Of a stretch of DNA of 64,000 nt, positions 2,668 through 46,127 are shown one piece after another. The notes below the pieces were generated by a model. That model saw only the letters and a program-made list of their open reading frames with translations. It did no database searches and had not been told where the DNA came from. The stretch is taken from NCBI GenBank assembly GCA_045649025.1, contig JAZRPB010000025.1:38600-102599 (forward strand), in the 5' to 3' direction. How positions within the stretch are numbered: position 1 is the stretch's first letter; each line of letters opens with the position of its first letter. The translations under genes were made by a program, and so were the position numbers. The DNA is from Clostridia bacterium. Lineage in GTDB: Bacteria; Bacillota; Clostridia; UBA1381.

Positions 2668-2826
2668 TTGTCACAAAACAAAAAAGATAACTTGGAGTTG
2701 CAAAAGAAACTCGAAAACGGTTATAAGGAAATGGCGGAAATAAATCTTGAATTAGCACAAATATGTTTTGAAGCTGACAATGATTGTTTGAAGCATTGCG
2801 AAGAAAAACTGACGGAGTGTGAGTAA
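2668..2826 (+). CDS. Short MazE/EndoAI-like antitoxin (52 aa, toxin-binding C-terminal segment only); not in the ORF track
   Basis: SD GAAAGGAG at 2650-2657, then TTG at 2668. The translation ...NGYKEMAEINLELAQICFEADNDCLKHCEEKL resembles the C-terminal GYMEMAKINL region of Bacillus EndoAI. The stop lies 3 nt before the mazF start. No ribbon-helix-helix part can be encoded because the alr stop is at 2632-2634. Confidence 0.55.
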   Translation: MSQNKKDNLELQKKLENGYKEMAEINLELAQICFEADNDCLKHCEEKLTECE

Positions 2827-2829
2827 ATT

Positions 2830-3180
2830 GTGATAGTAAAACGAGGAGATATTTATTACGCTGATTTAAGTCCCGTTGTAGGTAGTGAACAAGGCGGTAT
2901 ACGGCCTGTGCTAATAATTCAAAACGACATAGGCAATAAATACAGTCCCACTGTGATAGCAGCTGCAATCACAAGTCGGATAAATAAAGCTAAAATGCCT
3001 ACACATATTGAGCTTTGTGCCAAGGAATACGGACTTAATAAGGATTCTGTGATATTATTGGAGCAAATCAGGACAATAGATAAAAAACGATTAAGAGAAA
3101 AAATTGGTTGCCTGGACAATGAGCTTATGAATGAAGTAAATGATGCTTTGTCTGTAAGCTTTGGTCTGGGCGATTGTTAA
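2830..3180 (+). CDS. mazF: MazF/PemK-family mRNA interferase (EndoA type)
   Basis: 116 aa. [33 protein letters not shown] is nearly identical in pattern to Bacillus EndoA. GTG start. Confidence 0.93.
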
Positions 3181-3203
3181 TATTAAATTTAAAGTACATT
3201 AGT

Positions 3204-3236
3204 AATCCGCAGGTGCAATACTTGCGGATTTTTTTA
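3204..3236 (+). terminator. Rho-independent terminator after mazF
   Basis: Stem AATCCGCA (3204-3211) / TGCGGATT (3223-3230), followed by a T-run to 3235. Confidence 0.7.
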
Positions 3237-3259
3237 TGCAAAAATATACAAAATATGTA

Positions 3260-3288
3260 TTGAAAAAAAATATGATATGTGATATAAT
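3260..3288 (+). promoter_or_regulatory. Sigma-A type promoter (TTGAAA, 17 nt spacer, TG-n-TATAAT)
   Basis: -35 TTGAAA at 3260-3265 and an extended -10 TGATATAAT ending at 3288, with an exact 17-nt spacer. Confidence 0.6.
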
Positions 3289-3495
3289 TGACACATACAG
3301 AATTTTATTTTATAAAATTCACAAGAGCTTACGCTCTTGTGTACTCTTTCGAGTACTGTGTCAATTGACGGCGTCGCAAAAATGCTCTTGCAAGCAATCA
3401 TTTTTACTCCTGGTAAAATAATTTTGCGGCATCAGAATTGTGCACTGATTATATAATTTTAATTGAGATATTATATATTTGAAGGAGGGATTAGC
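3289..3495 (+). promoter_or_regulatory. Structured leader element, copy 1 of a duplicated module (see findings); not a T-box
   Basis: A closing helix (3289-3295 / 3357-3363) surrounds three hairpins (3301-3319, 3320-3341, 3342-3355). The 56-nt core 3364-3419 matches the reverse complement of 43564-43619 at 53 of 56 positions. Confidence 0.5.
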
Positions 3496-3678
3496 TTGGT
3501 AATAAAAGTAATTGCTATTGTTTTAGCACTGATAGCTCTTATGTTGAATTTTCGTGGAAAATGGATTATGGAAACATTTTTAAAAAAAGACACCTCCTCC
3601 CAAAATTTACTTTTAGGAATGAAATTTGCAGCACTTATAATTGCAATTATAGCTTTTGTGCTTGTATTTTTATCTTAA
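3496..3678 (+). CDS. Small two-helix membrane protein (60 aa), hypothetical
   Basis: SD GGAGGG ends 6 nt before TTG at 3496. The product has two hydrophobic stretches (VIKVIAIVLALIALML and FAALIIAIIAFVLVFL). The track start at 3463 lacks an RBS. Confidence 0.5.
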   Translation: MVIKVIAIVLALIALMLNFRGKWIMETFLKKDTSSQNLLLGMKFAALIIAIIAFVLVFLS

Positions 3679-3705
3679 TAAACAACAGAAAGGAAGAATA
3701 TATAA

Positions 3706-6339
3706 ATGGAAGATGCAAACAACATTGCAAAAACCTACGACCCATCATCGTTCGAGGAAAGAATATATAATACATGGGTAGATAAAAAGTATTTTCATGC
3801 AAAGGTTAATAAAGATAAAAAACCTTTTACAATAGTTATTCCACCCCCTAATGTAACAGGTCAGTTGCATATGGGTCACGCTCTTGACGAAACAATACAG
3901 GATATTCTTATCCGTTACAAGAGAATGAAGGGCTTTGAGGCACTATGGGTGCCTGGAACAGACCATGCCGGTATTGCTACTCAAATAAAGGTTGAGGAAA
4001 GCTTAAGAGTAAATGAAGGTCTTACACGCTACGATTTGGGACGTGAAAAGTTTTTGGAGCGTGTATGGGATTGGAAAAATCAATACGGCGACAGAATAAT
4101 TAATCAGCTTAAAAAAATTGGTTCTTCTTGTGACTGGGACAGAGAGCGTTTTACAATGGATGAGGGCTGCTCAAAGGCTGTTAAGGAGGTTTTTGTTAAT
4201 TTATATAATAAAAATCTTATATATCAGGGCTCAAGAATAATAAACTGGTGTCCGCATTGTATCACTGCCCTATCTGATGCAGAGGTTGAACATAAGGAAC
4301 AGGCTGGACATTTCTGGCATATTAAATATCCGATTAAGGATAGTGACGGCTTTGTGGTTATTGCAACCACACGTCCTGAAACTTTATTGGGTGACGTGGC
4401 AGTTGCAGTTAATCCCAACGATAAAAGATACAAAGACCTTGTTGGTAAAAAACTGATTTTACCATTGGTTGGCAGAGAAATTCCTGTTATTGCAGATGAA
4501 TATGTTGATAAGGAATTTGGTACAGGCTGTGTTAAAATCACTCCTGCTCACGACCCTAACGACTTTGAGGTTGGTCAAAGACATAATCTTGAACAAATCA
4601 AGGTGATGAATGATGATGCAACCATTAACCACTATGGCGGAAAATACGAGGGTATGGACCGTTACGATGCAAGAAAGGCAATGGTTAAGGACCTTGAGGA
4701 TTTAGGCTTACTTGTTAAGGTTGAGGATCACACTCATAATGTTGGTGAGTGTTACAGATGCTCCACAACTGTTGAGCCGATTATTTCAAAACAATGGTTT
4801 GTTAAAATGAAGCCTCTTGCACAGCCTGCAATTGATGCTGTTAAAAACGGGGACACTAAATTTGTGCCCGAGCATTTCGAAAAGGTTTACTTCCACTGGT
4901 TAGAAAACATAAAGGATTGGTGTATCTCACGTCAGCTATGGTGGGGACACAGAATTCCCGCATTCTACTGCGATGAATGTGACGAGATGGTTGTAACAAA
5001 GGATGAGAGTGCAATATGTCCTAAATGCGGTAAAAAAATGCGTCAGGATCCCGACACACTTGATACATGGTTCTCATCTGCACTATGGCCATTCTCTACA
5101 CTTGGCTGGCCTGAAAAAACAGAGGAATTAGAATATTTCTATCCCACAAGTGTGCTTGTAACAGGCTACGACATTATTCCGTTCTGGGTAATGAGAATGA
5201 TGTTCTCTGCAATTGAGCATACAGGTCAGGTACCGTTTGACCACGTATTTATACACGGACTTGTGCGTGACTCACAGGGCAGAAAGATGTCTAAATCTCT
5301 TGGAAACGGCATTGACCCATTGGAAATCGTATCAAAATATGGTGCAGATGCATTAAGATTTACTCTTGCAACAGGTAACGCACCAGGTAATGATATGCGT
5401 TTCTATATTGAAAGAGTAGAGGCAAGCCGTAACTTTGCAAACAAGATATGGAATGCATCAAGATTTACACTAATGAATCTTGATATTAACGAAAATAAGC
5501 TACCTGATTTTGATGAGCTTCAAATTGAAGATAAGTGGATACTTTCAAAGTATAACGAGGTTGTAAAATCAGTTACCGAAAACCTTGACAATTTCGAGCT
5601 TGGTGTTGCAGTATCAAAGCTATATGACTTTATATGGGATAATTTCTGCGACTGGTATATTGAGCTTGTTAAGCCAAGACTGTTCGATAAAGAAAACCCA
5701 ACAGGCAAGAGTGCACAGTATGTTTTAACATATGTTTTATCAAATACTATGAAACTTCTTCATCCGTTTATGCCATTTATTACAGAGGAAATATGGCAAC
5801 ATCTTCCCCACGAGGGCGAAAGTATAATGATAAGTGACTATCCTGAATATAACAGTTCACTTGTGTTCGAAGATGAAGAAAAGGCAATGGAGCTTATAAT
5901 GTCGTCTATTACTGCAATAAGAAACAGACGTGCAGAGATGAATGTGCCACCATCAAAGAAAGCAAAGGTTATAATAGTAACCGACAAATCCGACATCTTT
6001 ACAAAGGGTGCAATATTCTTTGAAAAGCTTGCATCGGCAAGCGAAACTGTTGTGCAGGGCGATAAAACAGATATAAGTGCAAATGCAGTTAATATTGTTG
6101 TACCAAGTGCTGAAATATTCTTACCTCTTGATGATTTGGTTGATAAAGAAAAAGAGCTTGAAAGACTAAATGCTGAAAAGAAAAAGCTTGAGGGCGAAAT
6201 CAAGAGAGTTGAGGGCAAGTTAAATAACCCAGGCTTTGTTGCAAAAGCACCGCAAAAGGTTGTTGACGAAGAAAAAGCAAAGGGCGAAAAATATAAAGAA
6301 ATGCTTGCAAAGGTACTTGAAACAATTAATAATATGTAA
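3706..6339 (+). CDS. valS: Valine--tRNA ligase
   Basis: 877 aa. Class I HIGH motif ([10 protein letters not shown]), KMSKS motif, and the C-terminal coiled coil typical of ValRS. Confidence 0.97.
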
Positions 6340-42525: not shown

Positions 42526-43470
42526 TCATTTTTTATATTCTTCAACAATATATCTTGGCCGTCTTTTAACTTCCTTATAGATTTTTCCAATATACTCACC
42601 AACAAGACCAATCGACAAAAGTTGAACGCCACCGATAAACCATATTGAAAGCATAAGCGATGCCCAGCCGTCGCTTGTGTTGCCTATAATCTTTTCAACA
42701 AAAGCGTATACTGCCATAATAAATGAAAATACACACACAATTAAGCCGAGTGATGTTATTATTCTTATAGGTGTTATACTAAACGACGTTATTCCATCGA
42801 GTGCAAATGAAATCATTTTTTTTAACGGATATTTCGACACACCTGCAAAACGTATGGTGCGGTCATAATATACTGTTTCCGTTTTAAAGCCAAGCAAAGG
42901 AACCATTCCCCGCAAAAACAAATTTCTTTCTTCAAATTCCGATAACGCCTTTAGTGCTTTTTTACTCATCAGCCTGTAATCTGCGTGGTTATATACAATG
43001 TTTACACCCATAAGCTTCATAAGTTTATAAAAGCCCAGTGCTGTTGTACGTTTAAATGCACTGTCACTCTTGCGTTGTTTTCTTACACCATATACTATAT
43101 CGTTGCCTTCGTTAAATTTTTGTACCATTTCGGGTATAACGTGAATATCATCCTGTAAATCTGCATCAATTGAAATTGCACAGTCACAATCATCCATAAC
43201 ACTCATAAGAGCGCCGAGCAGTGCGTTCTGGTGTCCAACATTACCAGCAAGCTTTATACCATAAATTTCATTAAAATCTTCGGTTAGTCTGTTTATAATT
43301 TCCCATGTTTTATCTTTTGAGCCGTCATCTGTGAAAACTATTTTACTGTTTTGGCTTATAAGCTCTTTACGTATCATATCCTTTAAAAGCTGGAGCATCT
43401 GTCTTGATGTTTCGTGCAAAACCGCTTCCTCGTTATAGCAAGGAACAACTATATATAAAGTTTTAGCCAC
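42526..43470 (-). CDS. Family 2 glycosyltransferase, polyprenyl-phosphate glycosyltransferase (GtrB/CsbB-like)
   Basis: 314 aa. YIVVPCYNEE, DDGSKD and IDADLQD motifs plus two C-terminal TM helices. GTG start with SD AAAGGAGG. Confidence 0.88.
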   Translation of the reverse strand: MAKTLYIVVPCYNEEAVLHETSRQMLQLLKDMIRKELISQNSKIVFTDDGSKDKTWEIINRLTEDFNEIYGIKLAGNVGHQNALLGALMSVMDDCDCAISIDADLQDDIHVIPEMVQKFNEGNDIVYGVRKQRKSDSAFKRTTALGFYKLMKLMGVNIVYNHADYRLMSKKALKALSEFEERNLFLRGMVPLLGFKTETVYYDRTIRFAGVSKYPLKKMISFALDGITSFSITPIRIITSLGLIVCVFSFIMAVYAFVEKIIGNTSDGWASLMLSIWFIGGVQLLSIGLVGEYIGKIYKEVKRRPRYIVEEYKK

Positions 43471-43725
43471 ACCAATACCTCCTTTAAATTATATAAAACC
43501 TTTTCAATTATATGTAATATGAATTCATTATATAAAGACCATACATTTCAGATGACAGAATTCATTTTACCAGGAGTAAAAATGCTTGCTTGCAAGGGCA
43601 TTTTTACGACGCCGTCAATGGCTGTAGCGGTCGCAAGACCGCAAAAAAGCCGCAAGGCTTTTATAAATTTTGCAAAGAAAAATTTATTATACAGTCATTA
43701 TACTATATTTTTCGTATAATTACAA
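43471..43725 (-). promoter_or_regulatory. Promoter plus structured leader element, copy 2 of the duplicated module
   Basis: The minus strand reads TTGTAA (43725-43720), a 17-nt spacer, then TATAAT (43702-43697). A closing helix (43690-43696 / 43620-43626) and three hairpins (including 43628-43643 and 43645-43662) follow. The core 43564-43619 matches 3364-3419 at 53 of 56 positions. Confidence 0.5.
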
Positions 43726-43802
43726 GTGTTTTTTCCATTATTTATATATAGATTTTTTGTAATTAAAACCACAAATTTACATAAAATTAATTTTAGATAT
43801 TA

Positions 43803-43831
43803 TTGATTATTTTTAAGGTTTATGATAGAAT
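43803..43831 (+). promoter_or_regulatory. Promoter of the phosphodiester glycosidase/SLH gene
   Basis: TTGATT, a 17-nt spacer, then TG-n-TAGAAT. Confidence 0.5.
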
Positions 43832-43853
43832 AATTAATTGAGGTGTTATGGCT

Positions 43854-46127
43854 ATGAAAAAACTTATAAATACCATTATAGCAACAATGATTTTGGTTAA
43901 TACAACTGCATTTGCAGGTGTTTTTGGAAATGTGTATAATTCACAGAGCGAGGAAATGTGGAAGCATACATACTACCAAAACAGCTTTACAAATGCAAAT
44001 AATCAAAAGCAATCGGAGCACTATATTGAATATACGCCCAACACAGACATTGTGCCCGTTATGGTAAACGGAGATAAATTATGGGGTACATTAAATATAT
44101 ATGATGCACAAAAAATTCTGGATAAAAACGGTTTCAGGAGCAGATTTGGAATAAATGCAGATTATTTCTCGTTCCAGACAGGTCTACAAATGGGTACTAC
44201 CATTTCAAACGGCGAGATTGTGTCTAAAGAATATGATGCACAGGATGCAATAGGCTTTCGTGCAGATGGGAGTGCTTTTATAGATACCCTACAAATACAA
44301 ACAATGCTTTCAAACGGCGAAAAATCAGTAGAAATAATGTTTATAAACAAATGGTGTCAGGCAGGATTTGACCCCATTTATCTTCTTACAGATGCTTTTG
44401 GCGATGCAACAAAAACAAAATCAAATTGCCTGTATATTATGGGTGCTGTTACAGACGGCTCAATAAGTATAGATAAAACTGCAACAATAACGGTTGAGGA
44501 TATATTTGAATATGACGGAGAGGTTAAAATTCCAAAAGGCAAAATACTTTTGCAAATAGATATTGCAGGTGGCAGAGCAGATTTGATGGAGTTTATGAGT
44601 TCAATACAAAAAGGCGATACATTAACAATCACAAACACTGCCATAAACAGTGAGAAAAACCTGTGGGATGAGGCAGTTGAGGCAAGCAGTACCGTTGGCG
44701 GACGGCTTATAAAAAACTCCAACATCGGCAGTGGCTTTGAAGCAGGTGTACACCCAAGAACTGCAGTAGGAATAAAAGAAAACGGCAACGTAATTTTTTA
44801 CACTCTTGACGGTCGTCAAAGCGGATACAGTGTAGGGGCATCGCTTACTGATTTAGCAAAGCGTATGATTGAATTAGGTTGTGTTGATGCAATAAACCTT
44901 GATGGCGGAGGTTCAACTGTAATTGGCGGTTGGCTACCCAATAATCCCACCTTCAGTGTCTTAAACAAGCCCTCGGGCGGTGCACCAAGATACGTTGCAA
45001 ACTATATATTTTTGCAGGATAAAAGAGAAAAAACAAACCTTGCTGAAAAAATTATATTTAAGGATTTAAAGAAAGATGTGCTTATAAATTCAACACAGGG
45101 AATTAATGTTGAACGGATTTTTGACACCTCCGACTACGAAATGACAGATTATTCCTTAAGTTATTCTTCAAACGATGCCACAGTAACAAACAACCTTGTT
45201 ACATTCGATAAGGAGGGTACTGCAGAGGTTTTTGCTCACGTAAATGATACAGAGTTACCCATAACCTTTAACGTGTACGATAAGGTTGATGATATGACAA
45301 TATATGATACTTCTTCCTGGAGTAAAATAACTGAACTTTCATTCAATGCAGGCGACGTTAAGCAGTTGTCACTTCGTCCTGCTATATATGCGGATGAAAA
45401 GGAATTGTATTTTTCAGGTGACACAATAAAATGGGAGGTTGACGGAGATATAGGCACTATCACCGATACAGGGCTATTTACCCTTAATTCCAAAAACAAT
45501 GGCTCAAAAGGGGTTATAAAGGTTAGCGCAGGACAGTTTACAAAGGAAATACCTGTTACAATAAACAAATTATTAGTATTTTATGATATTAATGAGCATT
45601 GGGCAAAGGAAATGATAATTTCACTTAATGAAGATAAGATGTTTAGCGGTATTGAAACAGAACAAGGTTTGGCATTCTTCCCTGATAATAATATGACAAG
45701 AGCAGAATTTGCAATCACAATGTGCCGTTATCTTGGTTTGAATTTAGATGATTATTCTTCATCCGATATTGTTTTTGCAGATAATGAAGAAATCCAGCCC
45801 TGGTCGCAAAATGCAATAAATGCTGTATTTAAAAACAAAATAATGAATGGAAGAATGGGAATTGACGGTGTATCGGTATATTTTGCACCCAACGAGCCTA
45901 TAACAAGAGCCGAGGCTATGACCGTTATAGGAAGAACAATAGAGGACAGCGAAAAATACGAGTTTAATTTTGCAGATGATAACAGTATTCCCGATTGGTC
46001 AAGGGATGAAATATATAAGCTTGTGAATAAAGGGATTGTTAGCGGATATGAGGATAACACCATTAATCCGCAAGGTAATATAACAAGAGCAGAGGTTGCA
46101 AGTTTAGTTTATAAACTACTGAAATAA
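43854..46127 (+). CDS. Secreted phosphodiester glycosidase (NAGPA/DUF2233-like) protein with C-terminal SLH domains
   Basis: Signal peptide; NLDGGGST motif in the N-terminal half; three C-terminal SLH-like segments (NNMTRAEFA, PITRAEAM, GNITRAEVA). The second ATG (43854) is preferred because GAGGTG lies 8 nt upstream. The track start is 43848. Confidence 0.8.
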   Translation: MKKLINTIIATMILVNTTAFAGVFGNVYNSQSEEMWKHTYYQNSFTNANNQKQSEHYIEYTPNTDIVPVMVNGDKLWGTLNIYDAQKILDKNGFRSRFGINADYFSFQTGLQMGTTISNGEIVSKEYDAQDAIGFRADGSAFIDTLQIQTMLSNGEKSVEIMFINKWCQAGFDPIYLLTDAFGDATKTKSNCLYIMGAVTDGSISIDKTATITVEDIFEYDGEVKIPKGKILLQIDIAGGRADLMEFMSSIQKGDTLTITNTAINSEKNLWDEAVEASSTVGGRLIKNSNIGSGFEAGVHPRTAVGIKENGNVIFYTLDGRQSGYSVGASLTDLAKRMIELGCVDAINLDGGGSTVIGGWLPNNPTFSVLNKPSGGAPRYVANYIFLQDKREKTNLAEKIIFKDLKKDVLINSTQGINVERIFDTSDYEMTDYSLSYSSNDATVTNNLVTFDKEGTAEVFAHVNDTELPITFNVYDKVDDMTIYDTSSWSKITELSFNAGDVKQLSLRPAIYADEKELYFSGDTIKWEVDGDIGTITDTGLFTLNSKNNGSKGVIKVSAGQFTKEIPVTINKLLVFYDINEHWAKEMIISLNEDKMFSGIETEQGLAFFPDNNMTRAEFAITMCRYLGLNLDDYSSSDIVFADNEEIQPWSQNAINAVFKNKIMNGRMGIDGVSVYFAPNEPITRAEAMTVIGRTIEDSEKYEFNFADDNSIPDWSRDEIYKLVNKGIVSGYEDNTINPQGNITRAEVASLVYKLLK

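Follow-up and report, generated by a model that had tools for sequence, protein, structure and literature searches.

Two copies of a structured non-coding element of about 170 nucleotides (nt) were identified in a 64,000-nt stretch of DNA from a Clostridia bacterium (assembly GCA_045649025.1, contig JAZRPB010000025.1, positions 38,600 to 102,599; hereinafter the window, numbered from its first letter), one upstream of the aminoacyl-tRNA synthetase gene valS and the other upstream of an operon encoding a glycosyltransferase (GT2 protein). Comparison with close relatives and with many similar loci suggests that these copies are probably members of a large family of non-coding, non-autonomous, promoter-associated mobile elements of gut and rumen Clostridia, which reside behind the native -10 box of a promoter and carry a -10 box of their own. 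Each copy is located immediately 3' of a predicted native sigma-A -10 hexamer, in the direction of transcription, with the element-borne -10 at the native distance from the leader; the two copies, the only ones in the window, are on opposite strands, 40 kb apart. An earlier reading of this DNA (hereinafter the sequence-only reading) had described a duplicated promoter-leader module with conserved helices where a valS T-box would be expected, and the promoter, the helices, the core and the duplication were all found where that reading had placed them, with the parts delimited as follows.

3260-3288, plus strand: predicted native sigma-A promoter of the small open reading frame (ORF)/valS operon, with the -35 box TTGAAA (3260-3265), a 17-nt spacer, TG (3280-3281) and the -10 box TATAAT (3283-3288).
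3289-3457, plus strand: element copy 1 (modules A, B and C), 168-169 nt, directly 3' of the -10 hexamer; the block that is missing in relatives.
3289-3364, plus strand: module A of copy 1, a predicted four-way junction closed by helix P1 (3288-3295/3357-3364, extending to 3285-3295/3357-3367).
3300-3320, 3321-3340 and 3341-3356, plus strand: hairpins hp1, hp2 and hp3 of module A, copy 1, delineated by folding and family covariation.
3365-3419, plus strand: module B of copy 1, the conserved core, comprising TTGACGGCGTCGCAA (an imperfect palindrome), a long hairpin and, at 3411-3419, the extended -10 TGGTAAAAT.
Within 3365-3419, plus strand: the module B hairpin of copy 1, GGCGU..AAAAAUGC..CUUG-loop-CAAG..CAUUUUU..AC.CC.
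3420-3457, plus strand: module C of copy 1, an optional 38-nt tail, with a terminal TATAAT (3452-3457) at the native -10 position relative to the leader.
3458-3705, plus strand: native leader, with a Shine-Dalgarno sequence (SD; 3484-3489), an ORF for a 60-amino-acid membrane protein (3496-3678) and valS starting at 3706; homologous in four element-free relatives.
43697-43725, minus strand: predicted native promoter of the GT2 operon, with the -35 box TTGTAA (43725-43720), a 17-nt spacer and the -10 box TATAAT (43702-43697); kept without the element in the relatives' contigs L203, L204 and L205.
43527-43696, minus strand: element copy 2, about 170 nt, with module A at 43696-43620, module B at 43618-43564, module C at 43563-43527 and a terminal TATAAT at 43532-43527.

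The cores of the two copies (3365-3419 and the reverse complement of 43564-43618) differ at 3 of 55 positions, a similarity that was matched in 0 of 100 shuffles, and module A of copy 2 contains the same helices at the same positions as that of copy 1, with unrelated sequence; copy 2 scores 142.8 bits with the family covariance model described below. The promoter in front of copy 1 (TG-A-TATAAT ending at 3288) scored 11 of 12 in a promoter scan, with the TG present, and we take the segment 3260-3288 to be the target site, lying outside the element proper. The termini of the element, TGACACATAC... on the left and ...GATTATATAAT (or ...CTCCTGGTAAAAT) on the right, are not mutual inverted repeats, that is, the terminal inverted repeats that define classical MITEs (inverted-repeat transposable elements of miniature size) were not found; the sole inverted repeat in the element is P1, which is internal and closes module A.

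The evidence of insertion comes from empty sites in relatives, which were sought by protein searches with ValS and the GT2 protein, followed by retrieval and alignment of the relatives' contigs. The gene order yjeF-alr-mazE-mazF-small ORF-valS is kept in four relatives, one of which encodes a ValS 98% identical to that of the window (L202), and the other three, 92-94% identical ones (L199, L200 and L201). The L202 sequence matches the window exactly up to ...TTGAAAAAAAATATGATATGTGATATAAT and then runs straight into ATTAAATTGAGATATTG..., the homologue of the window from position 3458 onward (alignment A2); the block 3289-3457, comprising modules A, B and C, is missing as a single unit in L202 as well as in L199, L200 and L201, and both flanks align. 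The valS promoter is identical in the element-free L202 and conserved in L199-L201, and the distance between the hexamer and the start codon is 38 nt in the window versus 40 nt in L202. The pattern at the second locus is the same: contig L203, which originates from the same metagenome sample as L202 and encodes a GT2 protein 96% identical to that of the window, reads ...TTGTAATTATACAAAAAATATAGTATAAT and then AAGTTTGTATTGTATATAATGG... (alignment A3), where the continuation is homologous to the window sequence after the final TATAAT of copy 2, and about 170 nt (43696-43527) are missing. The block of copy 2 is missing also in L204 and L205 (GT2 proteins 78% and 81% identical, respectively), and the strain ERZ27302317, represented by L202 and L203, is empty at both loci.

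Presence and absence at orthologous sites with precise boundaries, as expected of a mobile element, were thus observed at two loci; by parsimony, both window copies are taken to be gains, and the alignments point, with high confidence, to insertion of a promoter-associated mobile element. Because the element-free strains have the same promoters up to and including TATAAT, these promoters are native to each locus and not, as had been proposed, a part of the duplicated module. Nor does the element stand in for a valS T-box: in the close relatives, valS is located behind the same plain promoter, with neither the element nor a T-box, and the approximately 95 genes found downstream of family members are functionally unrelated. 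The element is not a valS-specific regulatory RNA. Among the metagenomic valS loci L119-L198, where the best ValS is 88% identical and the intergenic DNA is too distant to align, none contains the core; look-ups of the exact window proteins MazF, ValS and P0121 returned no record.

A scan of species-representative genomes with a pattern of 20 specified core bases (TTGACGGCGTCGNAAAAATGC) returned at least 118 loci, nearly all of them in metagenome-assembled genomes (MAGs) of uncultured gut and rumen Clostridia; the host labels among the matches listed are Oscillospiraceae, Congzhengia, Ructibacterium, Ornithomonoglobus and 'Clostridia bacterium.' The loci were analyzed as 8-kb blocks, and a contig end was accepted as such only where the contig range starts at 1. 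Copies occupy non-orthologous sites both within and between genomes, with several loci per MAG among the matches listed (for example, CAUHAO01, JAZURZ01, JAZOBB01 and CAJLLT01), and many core matches are found at true contig ends, a behaviour typical of repeats. Two or three matches in other phyla (L029 and L097) lie inside genes and look like chance. The sequence-only reading had held that many copies in other contexts would make the module a generic repeat; this is what the scan found, and the module is reclassified here as a mobile repeat.

The layout common to the family consists of a locus-specific TTGnnn-17-(TGn)TATAAT promoter, module A, module B, often module C, a short leader, an SD and a co-oriented gene, with the element itself spanning 130-170 nt. 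The consensus of module B is TTGACGGCGTCGYAAAAATGCCCTTGCRAGCAAGCATTTTTACTCCTGGTAnAAT, and that of module C, which is present in many but not all members, is GATTTTGCGGCATCTAAATYGTGCACTGATTCTATAAT. GC-rich lineages (for example, L001 and L017) share this architecture with wholly different module A sequences, and near-identical module A subtypes occur at unrelated loci of different species. There are also tandem and mosaic forms (A-B-A-B, B-miniA-B and A-B-C-A-B); by eye, nearly every A module abuts a B module, and one truncated A module (L083, ~1352) runs into a different repeat.

The next downstream ORF is co-oriented with the element in about 90% of the copies, and the upstream ORF is found in either orientation. 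The downstream proteins, 95 distinct ones among the matches listed, are functionally unrelated; judging from their N-termini, we take them to include DnaA, UMP kinase, cytidylate kinase, RecR, pyrophosphatase, dephospho-CoA kinase, Pol I, TrkA, MscL, DAHP synthase, ParA, ValS, glycosyltransferases and transporters. The element-bearing genes are not a regulon. Some elements located in front of orthologous genes are shared across species, namely, those preceding trkA (L063 and L100) and an MFS gene (L013 and L059), and the native -35 and -10 boxes are intact there.

The ends of the element were analyzed in the 87 copies for which upstream sequence is available. On the left, 84 of these have TATAAT as the hexamer; TG at -15/-14 precedes the hexamer in 59 copies, and TTG is found exactly 17 nt upstream in 64, with spacers that are unrelated between copies even where module A is near-identical. 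In the window, each copy has TATAAT at both of its borders, whereas family-wide the right hexamer mostly differs from the left one (the hexamer at the end of module B is TAAAAT in 43 copies, TAGAAT in 21 and TATAAT in 5). This difference in most copies argues against the flanking hexamers being a target-site duplication. The extended -10, TG-n-TAnAAT, at the end of module B is kept in divergent spellings (TGATATAAC, TGGTGTAAT and TGTTAGAAT), which argues for selection on an extended -10 promoter at this position; the hexamer of module C has neither a -35 nor a TG, and decays or drifts across copies.

Examination of the secondary structure bears out the claim that base pairing rather than sequence is conserved. 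RNAfold reproduced the closing helix 3289-3295/3357-3363 and the three hairpins, with z = -6.6 (RNA) and -8.1 (DNA) compared to shuffled sequences, and RNAalifold, applied to 30 diverse copies, yielded P1, hp1-hp3 and one long module B hairpin, with compensatory change in 26 of the 47 pairs. In a covariance-model alignment of 107 copies, 97.4% of the pair cells across 106 distinct members are standard pairs, and 32 of the 47 pairs show both-side change (567 cells). The covariation score was 0.302 versus 0.03-0.05 for slid controls, with 0 of 500 shuffles reaching the observed value; the alignment is fitted to the model, a bias in favour of pairing, and we judge that the effect size and the raw sequences leave little doubt. 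The stem pairs of module B appear as GC, CG, TA and AT across copies. The structure is under selection.

The distribution of mismatches differs between the modules. P1 starts at the last T of the -10 hexamer, and in the consensus fold, it extends into TAAT, pairing with ATTG just 5' of module B; the GC-rich variants have the same extension as TAATA/TATTG. An RNA with its start about 7 nt past the -10 cannot include P1's 5' strand. Non-Watson-Crick cells of module A are few and symmetric (an estimated ~32 G.U, leaving out one invariant T.G pair with 93 G.U cells, versus 36 A.C and 56 other mismatches), as would be expected of a DNA-level structure or of a structure required on both strands. In module B, the wobble is on the sense strand (46 G.U versus 6 A.C and 18 other), and a helix between modules B and C (GUCGCAAAA/UUUUGCGGC) pairs in 26 of the 29 copies with a long module C, with variation of the wobble type only in the partner strand (mostly C/U opposite G and G/A opposite U). 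Modules B and C thus bear the signature of a sense single-stranded molecule, most simply, a read-through transcript from the upstream promoter. The ACUCC segment of the core, described in the sequence-only reading as complementary to the downstream SD, is predicted to pair not with the SD but with GGCGU inside the core itself.

Searches of known families were negative. There was no hit in the whole window to Rfam 15 at gathering thresholds, T-box (RF00230) included, in agreement with the sequence-only reading, and permissive searches (E≤10) of 3150-3750 and 43400-43900 returned only unrelated chance-level hits and nothing relevant to T-boxes; the best weak hits fell far below gathering (FopS, 26.8 versus 56; RAGATH-22, 19.5 versus 120; twister-P3, 17.1 versus 39.9). 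BLAST searches of plasmid and phage collections produced no match, and IMG/VR produced one, of the same locus type as L033. Literature searches on the core string and on -10-targeting MITEs found nothing relevant, and neither these searches nor a term search of a 2024 review of prokaryotic MITEs turned up a description of an element that inserts base-precisely behind a -10 hexamer and restores the hexamer.

Several other assignments were tried and rejected. As a sigma-54 -24/-12 site, the core has a spacing that is off by 2; as a MerR-type long-spacer promoter, it has a dyad centred on the -35 and not in the spacer; and its matches to sporulation-sigma promoters are poor. Module A is not an invertible promoter, given that no copy has the hairpins in inverted order, and an origin from a retro-element was dismissed because the left boundary is at the -10 and not at the transcription start.

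These observations can be combined into a scheme in which the captured native promoter would transcribe the element, with the start about 7 nt inside it, and the transcript would form a compact folded 5' leader, with hp1-hp3 and also the B hairpin and the B-C helix as its parts. From its extended -10, module B would add or preserve a start near the original one, so that host expression would survive, making the insertion tolerable or useful. Because P1 would be absent from promoter-started RNA and module A shows no wobble bias, module A is read as a DNA-level (single-strand or cruciform) fold, which may mark the left end to a recombination enzyme that acts in trans; the pairing of P1 with the flanking -10 bases would set the left junction beside the invariant module B, and module B could be the sequence-specific recognition site of the trans-acting enzyme. 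By analogy, the nearest mechanism would be the single-strand 'peel and paste' of the IS200/IS605 type, elements that are reportedly moved by the Y1 HUH transposase TnpA via single-stranded DNA; movement by another site-specific system that works on folded single strands, for instance, an IS110/bridge-RNA recombinase or recombination of the integron or Xer kind, is possible as well. We hold the mode of movement proposed here with low to moderate confidence. A more specific version, which we consider unlikely, is a promoter-homing transposon, in which the enzyme would read the folded sense strand (module B and P1) and put the element into open complexes, at their single-stranded non-template -10/discriminator region. 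Such insertion would explain why 74% of the copies are behind a correctly spaced -35 and why transcription, rather than replication, sets their orientation; the element would be transcribed from the captured promoter and give the host gene a replacement -10.

Several points weigh against the interpretation of the family as mobile elements. The empty/filled pairs are two in number, both involve A+B+C copies, and both come from one strain pair; the position of the cut is ambiguous inside the repeated hexamer, and for the two window copies, a 6-bp duplication is possible. The loci were chosen by an exact 20-base match to module B, which inflates the apparent conservation of that stretch, and the enrichment behind true promoters could reflect survivorship instead of targeting. 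RNA starts, read-through and promoter activity are all deduced from sequence. No transposase or recombinase was found linked to the element: a tblastn search with an IS608 TnpA sequence over about 1.5 Mb of fetched loci detected one IS200-like gene only, at L096 (2010-2477, minus strand). This gene encodes a Y1 transposase of 155 amino acids, 35% identical to the IS608 TnpA query, lies about 430 nt from an element copy and adjoins two genes that, by appearance, are putative tRNA genes; it was rejected as the partner of the element because the hairpins at its ends, CCACGCGATAGTCGCGTGG and CCACCCGCTATGCGGGTGG, bear no relation to module A or module B.

Among the rival explanations, the one that fares best, itself quite improbable, is that the element is a promoter-parasitic small-RNA gene. 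Modules A and B, transcribed from the captured promoter and ending at the B hairpin and its U-run, would yield a trans-acting RNA of about 125 nt; the CAUUUUUACUCCUGG segment of this RNA (anti-AUG and anti-SD, like streptococcal csRNAs) would repress translation, or else the RNA would be a guide- or bridge-like molecule involved in mobility, and the extended -10 after the hairpin would re-promote the host gene. The complementarity of the conserved segment to AGGAG-N5-AUG, the A-tract before the hairpin and the U5 after it, the bias of the module B wobble to the sense strand, and the conservation of the extended -10 immediately downstream are all compatible with such a gene. However, in the consensus fold, ACUCC pairs with GGCGU and the U-run is inside the helix, the B hairpin is not called by a simple terminator scan, and the B-C helix, if real, needs read-through past the hairpin.

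Less probable again is a portable promoter/leader cassette of benefit to the host, disseminated chiefly through recombination and selection; it would be a 'mobile promoter' in the promoter-reuse sense and not a selfish element in active transposition. General recombination appears inadequate to account for the entry of two subtypes into two promoters of one lineage, with base-precise junctions, within 2-4% protein divergence, and the abutment to TATAAT in nearly all copies points to a site-specific process. The observations that such a cassette would explain are the occurrence of homologous sequence before non-homologous genes, which fits the published definition of mobile promoters (PMC3575422), the retention of both the native -35/-10 and the extended -10 of the element, including the cross-species trkA and MFS loci, and the mosaic and tandem forms, which point to recombination.

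Next, and with lower probability still, comes a riboswitch- or attenuator-like cis-regulatory leader RNA that would control valS and the GT2 operon instead of a T-box. Strong covariation indicates a structured element, but the wobble bias typical of RNA is missing in module A, and the closing helix overlaps the -10 hexamer and cannot be part of an RNA started there. The consistent position 5' of a co-oriented gene would suit a leader, yet the same promoters lack the element in a 96-98% identical strain and in other relatives, and the downstream genes have no common function, leaving no plausible common ligand. The sense-strand wobble in module B and the B-C helix suggests that a sense transcript matters, and the B hairpin with its U-run resembles a terminator; there is no Rfam match for such a leader.

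The view that the opposite strand is the functional and transcribed one, through a small ORF (AGGAG-N5-ATG, MLACKGIFATPS...) or an RNA with GNRA tetraloops and terminators, is hardly credible: the conserved core does include a good SD-ATG, all four window loops do read GNRA, and hp2 is terminator-like on both strands, but the ORF is not coding, as indicated by 30 nonsynonymous versus 4 synonymous substitutions distributed 18/8/8 over codon positions 1/2/3, its predicted C-termini are unrelated between the copies, the loops across the family are not GNRA (TAAC, TGAC, TATC and others), the module B wobbles become A.C mismatches on that strand (46 versus 6 in favour of the sense strand), and copies consisting of A and B only have no conserved promoter for it.

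With the mobile-element interpretation thus preferred, the closest known counterparts are the PATEs, non-autonomous derivatives of IS200/IS605 (PMC10055086). The similarities include the absence of terminal inverted repeats and of an evident target duplication, hairpin-rich ends, a fixed short motif 3' of which insertion takes place in one orientation (TATAAT adjoins 84 of 87 copies, and co-orientation is seen in about 90%), the potential of an internal sequence for pairing with the flanking target (TAAT with ATTG), and, in module B, one strand that appears to function as a single strand. Unlike in PATEs, the target, a promoter -10 box, has 6 nt in place of 4-5 nt, a variable four-way junction forms the left end and a conserved long hairpin the right part, the two being mutually dissimilar where PATEs have a conserved imperfect hairpin resembling that of the opposite end, the fetched loci (~1.5 Mb) contain no autonomous partner and a sole nearby tnpA with unrelated ends, and the location of the window copies on opposite strands 40 kb apart is a poor fit to a simple lagging-strand bias.

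The element also matches the category of putative mobile promoters or promoter reuse, for which similarity is the sole definition and which involves neither a mechanism of insertion nor a structure (Nijveen, Matus-Garcia and van Passel 2012, PMC3575422), in that highly similar promoter-bearing intergenic sequences are found upstream of non-homologous genes, both inside one genome and across genomes. It differs from those in its base-precise boundaries, in that the -35 and the first -10 are native to the locus, and in the dominance of conserved secondary structure.

The comparison extends to the small modular repeats of other bacteria. Pneumococcal BOX and Neisseria Correia elements have terminal inverted repeats (with a TA duplication in Correia) and are found in either orientation across many intergenic settings; we know of none reported base-precisely behind a -10 hexamer in one orientation. 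As in these elements (reviewed in PMC2229807 and PMC10969869), the copies described here are small, non-coding, multicopy and modular (A, B and C, analogous to boxA, boxB and boxC), form stable stem-loops, and can supply promoter hexamers (-10/-35 in BOX and Correia) and join neighbouring transcripts.

Like a T-box leader, the element is a structured 5' region that precedes a Firmicute gene for an aminoacyl-tRNA synthetase; unlike such a leader, the element has no T-box sequence, no specifier/antiterminator architecture and no Rfam hit, and is dispensable in close relatives. Folded single-strand recombination sites are exemplified by the integron attC and the attP hairpin of the CTX phage. The element resembles these sites in the conservation of structure over variable sequence, and the folded strand would likewise define the recombination site, but it is not associated with an integrase, a cassette array or an R/L box signature, and is dispersed in front of housekeeping genes.

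A number of copies are modified or accompanied by further repeats. At L083 (5003-5141), module B opens with a perfect palindrome of 16 nt, TTGACAACGTTGTCAA, in place of the imperfect one, TTGACGGCGTCGCAA; dyad symmetry or pairing, and not sequence, may be what is kept at this position. At two loci, L018 (beyond the core at 3142 on the minus strand) and L042 (beyond the core at 2153), module C is split by a GC-rich structured insert of about 110 nt and reads …GGCATCTA|CATTGTACAA…GGGTTCGGCG…GTGGCACATTGACTA|CATCGTTCATTGATTCTATAAT, which suggests that a second mobile element is nested in the first one. Downstream of module C, within the same 5' regions, small nested repeats are found (L004, L091, L040, L015, L075 and L044); in one type, short hairpins are arrayed with ATGAATTG between them, and a matching CAATTCAT occurs further on, another type is an array separated by AGCTAAAT, and these repeats can put 150-300 nt of extra sequence between the element and the gene. 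In addition, a GC-rich repeat of about 250 nt that starts with AAAAGCCTTCCCCTTGAGGGGAAGGTGGG follows or truncates copies in L016, L056 and L083 (~1352-1500), which belong to different MAGs.

In the neighbourhood of copy 1, the 60-amino-acid hydrophobic ORF (3496-3678), which has its own SD, has been kept by every close relative, whether the element is there or not, and none of these has a T-box; this conserved ORF between the promoter and valS makes valS the second gene of a small operon. Directly upstream is a toxin-antitoxin pair of the mazE/mazF type (2668-3180), followed by a strong intrinsic terminator (3204-3238; a 12-bp stem and a T-run), and read-through into the element from upstream is, accordingly, unlikely.

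What appears to be new here is a non-autonomous mobile element with an unusual target and architecture, whereas the general kind, mobile promoters and modular repeats, was known already. For annotators, there is a warning in that strongly covarying multi-helix 5' elements may be mobile DNA and not riboswitches, and the near-invariant 55-nt core should provide a good handle for finding the enzyme by co-occurrence. If the interpretation holds, these would be mobile elements for which the insertion site is the -10 box itself and the damage is repaired by a -10 that the element carries, raising the question whether a transposition system can read promoters or open complexes as targets. They would provide a concrete mechanism, resolved to the base, by which 'mobile promoters' arise and 5' leaders are rapidly rewired in a large and uncultured share of the gut microbiome.

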